Positions 4,680 to 55,415 of a stretch of 64,000 nt of DNA are shown piece by piece (within the stretch, counting starts at the first letter, position 1; each line of letters begins with the position of its first letter). The stretch covers positions 40,005 through 104,004 of the forward strand of contig JADZEY010000108.1 in the NCBI GenBank assembly GCA_020850315.1, given 5' to 3'. The position numbers were made by a program, and so were the translations under genes. The notes below the pieces were generated by a model, which made no database searches, had not been told where the DNA came from, and saw only the letters and a program-made list of their open reading frames with translations. The stretch comes from Armatimonadota bacterium (GTDB lineage: Bacteria > Bacteroidota > Ignavibacteria > OLB7).

Positions 4680-5498
4680 ATGATATACCGTGCATTGATT
4701 CCTACTACTCTTCTACTGTTGCTTGCAGCCGCCTCGCTATCGGCACAGGTCAGGATCATTGACTCGATCAATGTTCGTAGCGAAAGCTCCTCCGACCTCC
4801 CAATCTATGGTCACTTTGGTGTGGGGGAAGGGTATCATGATTGGGTGGATGGACTTGTAGATTTTGAGGTTCCCTTCTTCCCCCCTTCTGGCCTCTACAT
4901 CCTTTTTCAGCATCAGATAGATTCCGGTTCGCCAGCACAAGGGTTGTGTGTTGCCGATGTCCGTGGCATTCCCCCAACTGCACTTGAAGGGGAGGGGGAT
5001 ACCTTCTCCGTCACCTACCTGATGCGAATCCAGCGTGGAGTTGGGAGGAACATCATCTTTAACTTCCCCCGACCTTTTGCGCGCGGCATTGACTCAGTTG
5101 TTGTCACCGACCTGAACAACGTCTATTACGCTCACACCTTTACCACTGGTGTGGAGGAAGACACCTTAAAAAATGATGGCGTGAACAGCGTCTATATCAA
5201 AGCCTACTACAATATCCGCCGCTATAACTCGGCGGCGGTAGAGGAGATGCCAGGCCTTGCATCGGGAAGGTTTGCGCCAAACCCAACCAGCGGACGGTTG
5301 CGGTACAGCCAGCCGCTACCAATTGGGAGCTCCATTCAGGTGAGCAACATCCGAGGCGAGGTCGTGGAAATGCGGCAAGCTGATAGCCCTGAAACGACAA
5401 TGGAGTTATCCACTCTTCCCAGCGGAGCATACGTGCTGACCGTGCGCACGCGCGACGGAAAATTGTGGGATCGTGAGCAGATTGTGGTGGCTCGATAA
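4680..5498 (+). CDS. T9SS cargo protein of unknown function
   Basis: Start moved to ATG 4680 (MIYRALIPTTLLLLLAAASLSAQ signal peptide); C-terminal FAPNPTSG...SGAYVLTV CTD. Confidence 0.75.
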   Translation: MIYRALIPTTLLLLLAAASLSAQVRIIDSINVRSESSSDLPIYGHFGVGEGYHDWVDGLVDFEVPFFPPSGLYILFQHQIDSGSPAQGLCVADVRGIPPTALEGEGDTFSVTYLMRIQRGVGRNIIFNFPRPFARGIDSVVVTDLNNVYYAHTFTTGVEEDTLKNDGVNSVYIKAYYNIRRYNSAAVEEMPGLASGRFAPNPTSGRLRYSQPLPIGSSIQVSNIRGEVVEMRQADSPETTMELSTLPSGAYVLTVRTRDGKLWDREQIVVAR

Positions 5499-10120: not shown

Positions 10121-10223
10121 AGATTCAGGGGTGTGAGCATCGGGTGATAAAATAGAGTTCCGCTCGGGAACGTCAATCCTGCTACACTCGCCAAGTTTTT
10201 TGTTCCCCAACCAAACCTATGCC

Positions 10224-10493
10224 ATGACAAAAAAAACGATTGCTTATGTTCTGATCCTGATAGCCGTTGGCATCGGGATGTACTGGTATGCTTCCGGGGC
10301 AAGCATCTACACGCTAACATCGGTTCCGGTTGAGGTGACAGATGAACTGTTCGGCACCACCGAAACTCATTGGGAAGATGGATTCCGCCCCGGGCTTGAG
10401 CTTGCCGGGCCAGCAATGGGGGGATTGATTCTGGTGGCTGGCGTACTGCTGTGGCTTGCACGGCGCGACGGTAGAGCGGCGAAACCAGAGTAG
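10224..10493 (+). CDS. Small two-TM membrane protein
   Basis: MTKKTIAYVLILIAVGIGMYW and AMGGLILVAGVLLWLA hydrophobic helices flanking a short soluble loop. Confidence 0.7.
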   Translation: MTKKTIAYVLILIAVGIGMYWYASGASIYTLTSVPVEVTDELFGTTETHWEDGFRPGLELAGPAMGGLILVAGVLLWLARRDGRAAKPE

Positions 10494-10616
10494 GGTCTTG
10501 AAAAGAAATTTGCGGTGCTGAAGTGGTGGATGATAGTGGAACATGGCACCGTATCAAGGCGTTTCGCTAGTTAGACTACAACTTTCTCCTATCGTATGTT
10601 AGGCTCTATCCGCTTA

Positions 10617-10771
10617 ACTGACCTTACGCACAACCATGCTGGATCTTGGTAATTGCGGTACTTGGGTATTCCACCGGAACACACCCTCCGCTCATGCTGA
10701 GTCCCGTCGAAGTATGAGTGGAGCCACTGAACAAGCAACTGCTCACTCTTCAAATTCTGCGTAAGGTCAGT
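10617..10771. mobile_element. 155-bp MITE, copy 1
   Basis: Perfect 14-bp TIR ACTGACCTTACGCA...TGCGTAAGGTCAGT; 5-bp direct repeat GCTTA at 10612-10616 and 10772-10776; colinear second copy at 42196-42350. Confidence 0.85.
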
Positions 10772-10786
10772 GCTTAACACACAGCT

Positions 10787-11512
10787 ATGCGCCTTAAAGA
10801 CTTCTTCCGTTGGTTTCTATGGGAAGGGATTAACCCTTTGCTTCTAAGCATTCGATCGCAGCAACAATCGTTTGATAATAATTTTGCTGGATTGAATATC
10901 GGCTGTGGTTTAGATAACCCTACAAAATGGCTTGGAATTGATGGCGGGGCATATGTCCTACTAAAAAAAATACCACGCCCATTTATTAAAGTATTCTACC
11001 GATTTACGAATAGTTCACGGAATCATTCCTTGGACTCAATGCTCGAAAAAATATATGGTAGCCATATACTCCATTATGAAATTACACGTGGCCTTCCTTT
11101 TCCCGATACTACAGTCCCAGCCATATTTTCTTCCCATTTTTTTGAACACATTACTAAAACCGAGGCACAAGCGTTAGTACAGGAATGCTACCGGGTAATG
11201 AAGCCTGGCGGCATTATTCGGATTTGTGTGCCATCGTTGGAAGAATCGGTTAAAAAAATTGAAATGGCTGTGGAGCAATATCGCTCCGGTAATATTGCCC
11301 CAATTCAGAAATTTGTGACGTACGATGTCAGTGGTTTTAATAATAACTACAGCAATCATCGGCATATGTATAATTTTCTGGAAATGAAGCAATTATTAGA
11401 GGGCGCAGGTTTCCAGAATATCACAGAATATGCTTTTGGCAAGGGAAATATTGCTAATGTTGGACAGCTAGATACCCGCGAGGGGCTGTTTGTCGAGGCC
11501 GTAAAAAAATAA
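10787..11512 (+). CDS. Class I SAM-dependent methyltransferase (Methyltransf_11-like)
   Basis: LNIGCG motif I, LPFPD...SSHFFEHI, YRVMKPGGIIRICVP; visibly AT-richer than its neighbours. Confidence 0.85.
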   Translation: MRLKDFFRWFLWEGINPLLLSIRSQQQSFDNNFAGLNIGCGLDNPTKWLGIDGGAYVLLKKIPRPFIKVFYRFTNSSRNHSLDSMLEKIYGSHILHYEITRGLPFPDTTVPAIFSSHFFEHITKTEAQALVQECYRVMKPGGIIRICVPSLEESVKKIEMAVEQYRSGNIAPIQKFVTYDVSGFNNNYSNHRHMYNFLEMKQLLEGAGFQNITEYAFGKGNIANVGQLDTREGLFVEAVKK

Positions 11513-35399: not shown

Positions 35400-35555
35400 T
35401 GTGATGTTGTTGTGTGTGTTCCCTTCCCGCGAAACTGGCGGCCAAAATACAACAGGGAAGCCATTGCCGGTTCTTCTTTTGTCGCACCAGTTCCACGCTG
35501 AGCAATACCCACACTAATGACTCGGGTGAAATGAGATTGCGAACATCCATCTTCC

Positions 35556-35780
35556 GCCCTGAAGGGGCAGCATACGTCAGCCCAGGGCAACGCCCTGGGA
35601 ACACAGTTCCCCCACGACCTCAACGCCCTGAAGGGGCAATTCAACACGCCGTTGTAGCCCATGTTCATCACATGGTGGTGGTGGTGATATTGTTGTGCCG
35701 CCCTTTCAGGGCTTGGGATATTGTTGGTTTGGGCAACCCAGGGCGTTGCCCTGGGCTATGGTAGCCTGCCCCGTTGGGGC
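35556..35780. repeat. Nested inverted REP/BIME-like palindrome cluster
   Basis: GCCCTGAAGGGGC (35556, 35625) and inverted variants (35700, 35768); AGCCCAGGGCAACGCCCTGGG (35579-35599) and its exact reverse complement (35737-35757). Confidence 0.75.
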
Positions 35781-35966: not shown

Positions 35967-36004
35967 AAGGATGGGATGGTTTGCGTCTTGTGTGCTTCCC
36001 GTTC
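35967..36004 (+). repeat. 38-bp direct repeat, copy 1
   Basis: AAGGATGGGATGGTTTGCGTCTTGTGTGCTTCCCGTTC; 35/38 identical to 36629-36666. Confidence 0.8.
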
Positions 36005-36130: not shown

Positions 36131-36601
36131 ATGCAGATTGCACGTTCTTCTACCCTTGTTCTCAGGGGGTATTCTCCAAATCTTGCTCTTCCCCTTGTAA
36201 GGATGTGGCGAACCTCGTTCGAACAGGCAGTGGGGGTGGTGGACCCTCATTCCCTTGAAGAACAACTTGAGTATCTGCGGACGGCTCTGCTCCCCCGCTA
36301 TCAGGTGCAGATAGTGGTGGACACCGCCTCCGGTAATGTTGTGGGCTTCATCGCTGCCAACAGCGAAATCGTTGCGCAGTTGTACGTTCACCCTGAGTAC
36401 CAACGGAAAGGGATTGGATCGTGGCTTATCAATGTTGCCAAAGAGCAATCCAACGGACGGCTGCGGTTGTTCACGTTCAAGGTCAACGCCAAAGCCCAAC
36501 AATTCTACCAGCGCCATGGTTTTAAGGTGGTTGGAGAAGGGTTTGAAGAGATGTGGCAGTTGGAAAATTTGGAGTATGAATGGGTGAGAGAGCCTGAGTA
36601 G
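36131..36601 (+). CDS. GNAT family N-acetyltransferase
   Basis: QLYVHPEYQRKGIG acetyl-CoA motif A, NAKAQQFYQRHGF. Confidence 0.9.
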   Translation: MQIARSSTLVLRGYSPNLALPLVRMWRTSFEQAVGVVDPHSLEEQLEYLRTALLPRYQVQIVVDTASGNVVGFIAANSEIVAQLYVHPEYQRKGIGSWLINVAKEQSNGRLRLFTFKVNAKAQQFYQRHGFKVVGEGFEEMWQLENLEYEWVREPE

Positions 36602-36628: not shown

Positions 36629-36666
36629 AAGGATGGGATGGTTTGTGTCTTGTATGGTTCCCGTTC
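36629..36666 (+). repeat. 38-bp direct repeat, copy 2
   Basis: AAGGATGGGATGGTTTGTGTCTTGTATGGTTCCCGTTC. Confidence 0.8.
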
Positions 36667-42011: not shown

Positions 42012-42195
42012 TGCTCCATCTGAAGGTTAAGTATGTGAAGTTTATCAATCGGGAGTTTGTTGTCGGTTGTTAGGAGAGGAAGAATGGGCCGGGTTGATAG
42101 ATATTCGCCGTGCCAAAGGCCTGCAGTGCCGTGTGACCCGATCGATTGTGATTAGGCACTGCAAGCCTTGGCGGGCGAATCTCTCTCTCTTATTG

Positions 42196-42350
42196 ACTCA
42201 CCTTACGCGGAATCATGCTGGAGCTTGTTGATTGCAGTATCTGGGTGTTCCATCTGACAACACCCTCCGCTCATGCTGAGCCCCGTCGAAGTATGAGTGG
42301 AGCCACTGAACGGCCAACTGTTCACTATCCAAATTCTGCGTAAGGTGAGT
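42196..42350. mobile_element. 155-bp MITE, copy 2
   Basis: TIR ACTCACCTTACGCG...TGCGTAAGGTGAGT; 5-bp direct repeat TATTG at 42191-42195 and 42351-42355; gap-free alignment to copy 1 with about 23 mismatches (hand count). Confidence 0.85.
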
Positions 42351-42356
42351 TATTGA

Positions 42357-43934: not shown

Positions 43935-43950
43935 ACTGACCTTACGCACA
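43935..43950. mobile_element. Solo MITE terminal inverted repeat (remnant)
   Basis: ACTGACCTTACGCACA is identical to the first 16 nt of MITE copy 1; no matching body or partner end follows. Confidence 0.5.
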
Positions 43951-44063
43951 CGCCGTCTCCTTACCCCGTGAGTCGCCGTCAACCCAGCATTCGGTTAGCG
44001 TTGCGTTTGCTGCTCAGTTCCGCGAAGGCGTATCACCGGTTCTCAGGTGTTGTGAATCGGCAG

Positions 44064-54056: not shown

Positions 54057-54083
54057 CGAGCTAACAAAACATCTGGTTCATGC

Positions 54084-54124
54084 AAAAAAAAGCCGGGGTG
54101 ATAGTATGCCACTATCACCCCGGC
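54084..54124 (-). terminator. Intrinsic terminator for the histone-like gene
   Basis: GCCGGGGTGATAGT-ATGCC-ACTATCACCCCGGC with an A8 run on + (U-tract on -). Confidence 0.8.
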
Positions 54125-54174
54125 GGCGTTATCTGCCGAAGATGGTTTCCCATCAGCGTTGCAGCCGATAGGGA

Positions 54175-55257
54175 TTACTTCTTCTTTGCAGCAGGCTTTG
54201 CAGCTGGTTTGGTTGTCACCTTCGCAGCAGGCTTTGCAGCGGATTTTGCTGCTGGTGCAGCCTTTGCCGGAGCAGCAGCCTTTTTCGCAGGTGCGGCCTT
54301 TGCTGGCGCAGCTTTCTTCGCCGGAGCAGCCTTTGCTGGAGCAGCTTTTGCCGGAGCAGCCTTTGCTGGAGCAGCTTTTGCCGGAGCAGCCTTTGCTGGA
54401 GCAGCTTTTGCCGGAGCAGCTTTTGCTGGAGCAGTTTTTGCTGGAGCAGTTTTTGCCGGCGCAGCCTTCTTCGCAGGTGCGGCTTTTGCTGGAGCGGCAG
54501 CCTTCTTCGCCGGAGCAGCTTTTGCTGGCGCAGCCTTTGCTGGCGCGGCAGCTTTCTTCGCAGGTGCGGTCTTTGCCGGAGCAGCCTTCTTGGTTGTTGC
54601 AGGAGCAGCTTTTGCTGGAGCGGCAGCTTTCTTCGCAGGTGCAGCCTTTGCCGGAGCGGCTTTTGCCGGAGCAGCTTTTGCCGGAGCAGCCTTCTTGGTT
54701 GTTGCAGCGGCAGCTTTTGCGTCCATTGCTACTGACTTAATATCAGTGCGGCGAGCCGATGCGCTGCCTTTTTTTGCAGCGGCTTTCTTTGCCGGAGCAG
54801 CAGCCTTCTTCACAGGTGCAGCCTTTGCTGAAGCAGCCTTTGCCGGAGCGGCTTTCTTCGCAGGAGCAGCAGCTTTCTTCGCAGGTGCGGCCTTTGCTGG
54901 CGCAGCCTTTGCCGGAGCAGCCTTTGCTGGAGCGGCTTTTGCTGGAGCAGCCTTTGCTGGGGCAGCCTTTGCCGGAGCAGCTTTCTTCGCAGGTGCAGCC
55001 TTTGCTGGGGCAGCCTTTGCCGGAGCAGCAGCTTTCTTCGCAGGTGCAGCCTTTGCTGGGGCAGCCTTTGCCGGAGCAGCAGTTTTTTTGGCAGGTGCAG
55101 CTTTAGCAGGTGCAGCCTTTGCTGGCGCAGCAGCTTTGGCAGGTGCAGCGGCTTTCTTTGCCGGAGCAGCAGGCTTGGCTGCGGCTTTGGTGGCTGCTGG
55201 TTTTGCAGCAGCCGTGGAAGCAGCGGGCTTTGCCGCAGCTTTCTTAGTTGTGGCCAT
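54175..55257 (-). CDS. Histone H1-like Ala/Lys/Pro repeat protein (AlgP/Hc2-like), 360 aa
   Basis: [10 protein letters not shown] start with upstream GGAG; dozens of [11 protein letters not shown] repeats; own terminator. Confidence 0.85.
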
Positions 55258-55415
55258 AATGGTCTCCAGAAAAATGGTTATGAATCCCTTGCTTGATTGC
55301 GCCAACGGCCTTGGGCCAATCAAGCCCTATCTGCTAGTAGCTTATGGCAGGTGAGCTTCTGCGTTGCAGCAAAAGATCAATAGCACAAGCTGTTATAGCC
55401 TTGAAAAAAATGGGG

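Follow-up and report, generated by a model that had tools for sequence, protein, structure and literature searches.

A recently active MITE family with a hairpin core in a Chlorobiota-like genome from activated sludge

Correia elements of Neisseria and RUP elements of Streptococcus pneumoniae are bacterial MITEs, the former of which duplicate TA at the site of insertion. TIMEs derive from Tn3-type inverted repeats, which are about 38 nt long and start with GGGG. A MITE of Porphyromonas gingivalis, BrickBuilt, contains a 23-nt tandem minisatellite and possesses bidirectional promoter activity (PMC4596501). Tagged REPs are palindromes of 20-40 nt that have a stem of 8-9 bp, a loop of 4-5 nt and, as a tag, unpaired GTAG or CGTC at one of their ends; in Anabaena variabilis and Halothiobacillus neapolitanus, REPs enclosed by longer palindromic shells have been described (PMC3733652). 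Here we describe a 155-nt element, two copies and one remnant of which were found in a 64,000-nt stretch of DNA; this whole stretch will be referred to as the window, and all positions are those of the window unless another locus is named. The elements constitute a recently active MITE family, in which every defining feature of a MITE was found except an identified parent insertion sequence (IS).

Anatomy and genomic setting of the 155-nt element

The first-pass annotation had placed here a 155-nt element with perfect 14-nt terminal inverted repeats (TIRs), flanked by GCTTA and ending 15 nt before an ATG, and had mentioned a second copy of the same length at 42196-42350. The sequence and coordinates of the former are as described; the latter is 85% identical to it without any indel, and was found to have its own flanking repeat (TATTG/TATTG), which had gone unmentioned. 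The features of the two copies (A and B), the remnant and the adjoining gene are as follows.

10612-10616, no strand: left target-site duplication (TSD) of copy A, GCTTA; a single GCTTA in related strains
10617-10771, plus strand: MITE copy A, 155 nt; missing from related-strain contigs
10617-10630, plus strand: left TIR of copy A, ACTGACCTTACGCA, 14 nt
10636-10764, plus strand: 42-codon open reading frame (ORF) in copy A, judged non-coding
10684-10732, plus strand: core module in copy A; hairpin at 10686-10723, then CCACTGAAC
10758-10771, plus strand: right TIR of copy A, TGCGTAAGGTCAGT, exact reverse complement of the left TIR
10772-10776, no strand: right TSD of copy A, GCTTA
10787-11512, plus strand: methyltransferase gene, its ATG 15 nt past the end of copy A
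42191-42195, no strand: left TSD of copy B, TATTG
42196-42350, plus strand: MITE copy B, 155 nt, with TIRs ACTCACCTTACGC and GCGTAAGGTGAGT; core module at 42263-42311
42351-42355, no strand: right TSD of copy B, TATTG
43935-43950, plus strand: solo left end ACTGACCTTACGCACA, 16 nt, remnant of a third copy

The inverted repeat at the ends of both copies reads ACTSACCTTACGC(A). By repeat finder, the arms of the two copies reach 17-18 nt at 94% identity; those of copy A (10617-10633 and 10755-10771) match over 17 nt at 94%, the outer 14 positions being perfect. The TIR pattern occurs six times in the window against an expectation of 1.67, and none of 100 shuffles reached six matches. Between the ends of copy A, the arm CTCCGCTCATGCT (10686-10698), the loop GAGTCCCGTCGA of 12 nt (10699-10710) and the arm AGTATGAGTGGAG (10711-10723) make up a hairpin with a stem of 13 pairs, two of them G-T. 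The stable hairpin that copy A places 15 nt 5' of the methyltransferase start codon has an energy of about -58 kcal/mol. Folding of the two copies, when compared with that of shuffled sequences, gave z-scores of -4.9 and -6.8, and these scores, together with the excess of the TIR pattern, argue that the anatomy is more than a product of chance. Relative to copy A, both arms of copy B carry a G-to-C change at TIR position 4. This was considered as a compensatory change (G...C in copy A, C...G in copy B) and rejected, since a copy in another locus (L085, below) mixes both forms and an AT-rich family with the same ends is mismatched at position 7.

The element is short (155 nt with a perfect 14-nt TIR, the limit for MITEs being about 600 bp), and has no transposase coding capacity. 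The first-pass annotation had stated that it contains no ORF, which is to be corrected in that a 42-codon frame (10636-10764) is open in both copies; this frame is not a gene, since copies A and B differ in it by 13 non-synonymous and only 2 synonymous codons, with the differences spread evenly over the codon positions. The L085 copy no longer has the start codon of the frame, and a profile/protein search with the frame against 5.8 billion proteins returned a single match, which was another copy of the element (in locus L130). The frame was also considered as a parent transposase of which the N-terminus had been fused to the C-terminus, an idea that was dropped because there was no codon-level constraint and the profile search matched nothing other than that element copy. 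The same annotation had suggested that the element may supply promoter or terminator signals; this was not borne out, as neither a promoter of the sigma-70 type nor a Bacteroidota-type -7 motif (TAnnTTTG) nor an intrinsic terminator is present in the element. An Rfam search of the element gave nothing at gathering score and, up to E = 10, only one chance lncRNA fragment.

Copy A lies between the ORF of a small membrane protein (10200-10493, plus strand) and the methyltransferase gene, its insertion target being 11-15 nt upstream of the methyltransferase ATG, and is co-oriented with its neighbors; copy B is flanked on either side by a minus-strand gene and is antisense to both. RNA contigs from metatranscriptomes of a strain with an empty site span from upstream of the copy A target into the methyltransferase gene, from which it follows that copy A was probably inserted within a transcribed leader, the RNA having been seen for the empty allele only. 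All 46 of the larger window ORFs that were scanned are ordinary chromosomal genes, such as those of AspRS, HflX, alternative complex III, cytochrome oxidase and several T9SS-tailed proteins. Homologs of a neighboring ECF sigma factor are named as belonging to Chlorobi/Chlorobiota bacterium, Candidatus Kapaibacterium and Ignavibacteriae, and the window DNA was found in wastewater and activated-sludge metagenomes.

Some features elsewhere in the window are recorded here in their own right. The sole Rfam match at gathering score in the window is an Acido-Lenti-1 RNA at 35555-35599 on the minus strand (39.6 bits against a threshold of 37, full model), which thus sits in a Chlorobiota-like genome, outside the phyla that gave this family its name. 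Just downstream, a 38-nt direct repeat (35967-36004 and 36629-36666, 92% identical, 662 nt apart) flanks a 156-aa ORF at 36131-36601, the counterpart of which in the closest strain (L112) matches GNAT acetyltransferase families. The ORF at 54080-55354 (424 aa, no Pfam match) contains a degenerate tandem array of 15-nt period at 54180-55190, with about 50 units (TGCTGGAGCAGCCTT), and represents either a repeat protein of low complexity, rich in Ala and Gly, or the antisense of such a protein. Lastly, strains differ next to a T9SS-tailed protein, as seen on comparing L106-L109 (10245-11791) with L100-L105 (10264-11995): some have an N6/N4 DNA methyltransferase with a BglII-like endonuclease, i.e., a restriction-modification pair, others a LOR-domain protein with a glycosyltransferase, and the window and the closest strain a GH20 protein.

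Empty sites and further copies

Contigs from Logan, ENA and JGI that belong to a strain about 97% identical to the window have the copy A site empty, with one GCTTA (...CTATCTGCTTAACACACAGCTATG...); the aligned empty-site contigs read ...GGCTCTATCTGCTTAACACACAGCTATG... where the window has GCTTA, the element and GCTTA again. A 15.3-kb contig from a sludge metagenome joins position 10610 to 10771, thus skipping 160 nt, which is the 155 nt of the element plus 5 nt, and the same skip was seen in four metatranscriptome assemblies. The comparison of occupied and empty sites at copy A therefore reveals the fixed-length TSD that is characteristic of MITEs. Copy B is missing in the 97% strain (163-nt skip), and likewise at 12 syntenic loci from strains that are more distant. 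Since the bases at its target vary among strains (TTATTG in the window, TTG or TTCTGTG in others), these empty sites prove the absence of the element, not the exact sequence that preceded insertion, and the 5-bp duplication of copy B is read from the window alone. Repeats of 5 bp flank seven further insertions besides copy A. The empty sites in strains of about 97% identity place the insertion of both copies after a very recent strain split; judged by these sequence comparisons, copies A and B are recent insertions that duplicated 5 bp of their targets. As both are recent and yet have diverged by 15%, several diverged source copies must have been moving at once, as is to be expected if only the ends matter for mobility.

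The element is also present in multiple dispersed copies: in addition to the two copies and one remnant within 64 kb, more were found in loci L085, L130 and L112. Sequencing depth over copy A, relative to its flanks, was 9-17x at the right end, 1-3x at the left end and 80-130x over the central 50-70 nt in metagenomes holding the organism, a rough measure because contig depth may mix organisms. In each of four metagenomes, the homology of 8-11 other contigs breaks off precisely at the right end of copy B (42350-42352), and in three of these metagenomes that of four contigs does so at its left end (42196); these exact losses of homology confirm the element boundaries independently. The window-type copy of L085 (GC 58%) occupies 1650-1803 of that locus and is flanked by AAGTC and TAGTC. 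That of L130, retrieved by the protein-space search with the 42-codon ORF, occupies 716-870 and is near copy B in the alignment; it forms part of a longer unit (716-925, flanked by TACTC and TACTA) that adds a tail and a 28-nt 'mini' consisting of the two ends only. The flanks of both loci, which match at 4 of 5 positions, belong to abutting insertions. Overall, the reading of the first-pass annotation, namely a non-autonomous element defined by TIRs and a TSD, gained support from two of the three checks proposed with it: from these further copies and junctions, and from the empty orthologous sites, which at copy A have a single 5-bp target.

At the site of the solo end (43935), the closest strain (L112) continues into a full copy, the left half of which was seen (ACTGACCTTACGCAAAACCATGCTGGAGCTTGGTGATTGCAGTG... 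as far as the hairpin), and at least 300 nt of extra DNA precede the point at which homology resumes (43984). The solo end of the window is thus a deletion remnant of a third copy; a degenerate copy around it was sought, and no alignment extended past the 16 nt. The bases that precede the solo end, TTCAAAGGGTGAGT-A, look as though a further copy had decayed there, leaving its right end. The L112 sequence past the core, which is WD40-like coding DNA, was set aside as probably belonging to a chimeric short-read contig. It is to be noted that the interval between the ECF sigma factor and MFS genes (43950-44063) has undergone a strain-specific rearrangement, as seen against L112 and L132, and that the MFS protein is called with 393 aa in the closest strain, compared with an ORF of 435 aa with a GTG start in the window.

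The ends and the hairpin core in other contexts

The 21-nt right end, CAAATTCTGCGTAAGGTSAGT, proved to be common to elements in other metagenomes, a metagenome scan with this sequence having returned 12 loci. An element at 1809-2016 of L085 abuts the window-type copy there and has the same ends, a different interior and TAGTC on both sides. Nine loci (L077-L084 and L087, JGI contigs with a GC content of 33-39%) contain a 114-nt element with the termini ACTCACSTTACGCAAAAGT ... CAAATTCTGCGTAAGGTGAGT, the interior of which is unrelated, AT-rich and furnished with CGAAGC-type palindromes; it was found at three independent sites, with the TSDs TACTA, TAATA and TACTT. A right end, TACTC and a left end follow one another in a metatranscriptome contig. 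In all, the 14-nt inverted repeat can be written as ACTSACSTTACGCA, and close strains differ in having or lacking the 155-nt unit that it bounds as a whole; the insertion target is 5 bp, mostly TAnTn-like, A/T-rich and intergenic, and new copies are often located right beside the end of an old one, where the same 5-bp target was reused. The recurrence of the same ends and the 5-bp duplication around differing interiors indicates that the ends act as a mobile chassis. The right-end match of L081, which falls inside a coding region, and most viral matches look like chance and were discarded. 'Mini' elements of 28-31 nt, in which a left end is joined to a right end, were seen at L085 (1989-2016), L130 (898-925) and L088 (about 4820-4850); those of L085 and L130 are preceded by a conserved tail, GAC(T/C)AATGACCCTCTTTGCAACTG, and the minis may be products of internal deletion or footprints.

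The hairpin core has a distribution of its own. When 185,579 species genomes were scanned with the loop and 3' arm, 74 loci were obtained, of which 69 (about 80 exact matches) came from one genome, that of Chlorobiota MAG-306 (JAEUSP01), and the window resembles these loci only over approximately 10684-10732 (about 100 repeats matched). The REP-like nature that the first-pass annotation had ascribed to the hairpin is thereby substantiated to the extent that it is a high-copy palindromic module in this genome. The module is about 50 nt long, with the 13-bp stem, the loop GAGYCCCGTCGA and then CCACYGAAC, and over 85 copies it is conserved as CaCCGAAC, some 6 nt, CCYCCGCTCATGCTGAGCCCCGTCGAAGTATGAGCGGAG and CCACCGAAC. 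Window-type ends were found at none of the module loci of MAG-306, and one relic of a window-type left half is present in this genome (L028). A second MITE-like family of MAG-306, with GGCTCATCTCAAGTTAGTGTGCAA ends, a length of 138-273 nt and A-rich flanks (L004, L034, L057, L068 and L074), carries the module as well; it was found inside all six paired elements with these ends. The module also adjoins heptamer arrays in MAG-306. Conversely, three metagenomes contain a coreless variant of the shell, in which 77 nt are replaced by 13 nt. With respect to genes, the module shows no orientation bias in MAG-306 (13 co-oriented, 11 anti-oriented, 18 convergent and 16 divergent), which argues against a strand-specific RNA role. 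The possibility that CCACYGAAC on both sides of the hairpin represents a target duplication was rejected, since these bases do not vary among the copies and are lacking in the coreless variant.

The remaining five loci of the scan are single matches in Dehalococcoidia and Methylomirabilota MAGs, which have the same loop with partly different stems and were selected by the exact search pattern. Such hairpins may belong to a much wider palindrome family, a suggestion to be read with that exact-pattern selection in mind. In L001, L012, L021 and L060, all from these two groups, the loop is CTGAGCCC(C)GTCGAAG, and L021 has two of them, inverted and 47 nt apart. MAG-306 itself is packed with mosaic repeats, in which heptamer arrays (GAATGYC, AATGACY/ACTGACC and GAAGAGT) are interleaved with the hairpin core, a CGCGCCCCCCTGCTTCGCTCTGGCGAGCTTCGCGTCCCCCC...GGGGGG module and a GTCATCGCGAGGAGCG...GACGTGGCGATC module; the ACTGACC heptamer is the tip of the window TIR too.

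Mode of movement and comparison with known systems

No transposase domain was detected among the 46 window ORFs scanned, and an autonomous partner, with a gene between these same ends, as envisaged in the first-pass annotation, was encountered neither in the window nor in some 1 Mb of fetched loci, among them those of MAG-306 and those around right-end matches, nor in viral contigs or plasmids (by BLAST). A string search of a paper library with the element sequences gave no match. Since no transposase was found, the class of the enzyme can be deduced only from the signature of TIRs and TSD. The reading that we favor, with a probability of roughly 0.85, is that the 155-nt element is a MITE on the ends of which a transposase acts, the hairpin being cargo. 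The enzyme would be encoded elsewhere in the genome, would most likely be of the DDE type, and would bind both 14-nt ends and make cuts staggered by 5 bp. It would move any DNA that lies between the two ends, which would explain why the same ends surround unrelated interiors, and the interior hairpin module would be the cargo of the window family.

It could be argued that the central hairpin, and not the 155-nt unit, is what moves: it would be a REP/BIME-like unit mobilized by a RAYT or an IS200/IS605-type tyrosine transposase, and the outer repeat would be its palindromic target. The hairpin is indeed far commoner than the shell (80-130x versus 1-17x flank depth), it occurs in unrelated contexts in MAG-306, a shell variant without the core exists, and for Anabaena variabilis REP dimers enclosed by longer palindromes have been reported (PMC3733652). 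However, what is polymorphic at both window sites is the whole 155 nt, together with the 5-bp duplication, rather than the hairpin alone, and the same ends move other interiors; moreover, Y1 transposition makes no target duplication, no Y1 or RAYT domain was detected among the window ORFs scanned, and in the coreless variant 77 nt are replaced by 13 unrelated nt, a difference that a clean insertion of the hairpin would not produce. Tyrosine transposition, which we thus regard as an improbable origin of the window feature because it fails to explain it, may nevertheless hold true for the spread of the hairpin itself.

Two other explanations appear to us to be still less probable. That the copies are structured small-RNA genes or cis-regulatory RNA elements, which were duplicated rather than transposed, would fit the strong predicted folds (z = -4.9 and -6.8), the two G-T pairs of the stem, which would become G-U in plus-strand RNA, and the abundance of the core sequence in metatranscriptome contigs. 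Such a role is hard to reconcile with the opposite orientations of copies A and B relative to their neighboring genes, and with the core of MAG-306, which is oriented without bias; Rfam has no match for such an RNA, the ratio of RNA to flank depth is not above that of DNA, and a precise presence or absence with target duplication is the signature of a transposon, so that we consider this explanation very unlikely. An equally slim chance is accorded to the view that copies A and B are no longer mobile, having been left behind by a segmental duplication or, as solo ends, by the decay of a full-length IS. The failure to find a transposase and the reduction of one window copy to 16 nt would agree with decay, but copies A and B have unrelated flanks, strains of about 97% identity have neither site occupied, the 15% divergence between the copies implies that several sources were active at once, and many further element junctions exist in the same metagenomes.

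Thus, the 155-nt unit is best regarded as a MITE with the hairpin as its cargo. A broader scheme, which we offer as a tentative and rather doubtful extension, is that ACTSACSTTACGCA ends are the sites of an undescribed transposase lineage, ranging from low-GC genomes to Chlorobiota (55-58% GC), and would form a chassis in which palindromic modules were repeatedly swapped; the hairpin with loop CTGAGCCCGTCGAAG would be separately mobile, making the whole a nested, two-tier parasite.

The locus offers a clean, datable case of ongoing MITE transposition in an uncultured, Kapaibacteria-like Chlorobiota population of activated sludge. Because public metagenomes contain occupied alleles side by side with empty ones, the element can be used as a strain marker, and its ends and 5-bp target define a probe for the responsible transposase. 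The position of copy A, 15 nt upstream of the methyltransferase start, constitutes a natural test of the effect of the insertion on expression. As the element spawns spurious small ORFs, annotators should mask it.

Among the systems named at the outset, Correia and RUP elements are similar to the window element in having a length of 100-200 nt, TIRs, a TSD, no transposase, intergenic locations, a long-hairpin fold and many diverged copies. They differ in that the end sequences are unrelated, the TSD is 5 bp here in contrast to the TA of Correia, and no parent IS was found here; furthermore, Correia ends carry described promoter elements, whereas none were found in the window element. A 5-bp, A/T-rich target duplication is shared with the Tn3-derived TIMEs, and a 10-mer of some copies, ACTCACGTTA, presumably occurs in the inner part of the 38-bp Tn3 inverted repeat as well. 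However, the ends of our element are 14 nt long and start with ACT, unlike the TIME ends of about 38 nt that start with GGGG, and it is therefore not a TIME; the TSD and empty sites fix the terminus at ACTSACC, which excludes Tn3-type ends, and the likeness of the 10-mer is treated as coincidence. The TGACCAA unit of heptamer arrays is the reverse complement of TTGGTCA, the STRR2 member of the cyanobacterial STRR heptamers. As in STRR/Nezha-type repeats, elements are interleaved with heptamer arrays (ACTGACC/AATGACC) in MAG-306, L085 and L130, whereas the window copies are free of such arrays, and we regard this relation as a lead only.

With respect to REP and BIME sequences, the window core is likewise a high-copy extragenic palindrome, and the arrangement of a hairpin within TIRs resembles that of nested REPs. 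The core is nonetheless not a tagged REP, since stem, loop and tag all differ: its stem measures 13 bp, its loop of 12 nt has CGTC within it, and it is flanked by CCACYGAAC; the whole window element, in addition, has a TSD, which REPs lack. The closest analogs are the nested REPs of Anabaena (PMC3733652) and BrickBuilt (PMC4596501). BrickBuilt is, like the present family, a MITE of the Bacteroidota lineage with invariably intergenic locations, in which small inverted-repeat ends enclose a separate repeat module, although the window element has a single palindromic hairpin and no promoter motifs, and there is no sequence similarity between the two. Overall, the elements described here represent a family that is new but belongs to an ordinary kind, and its only non-routine aspect is a hairpin that is shared by MITEs with different ends.
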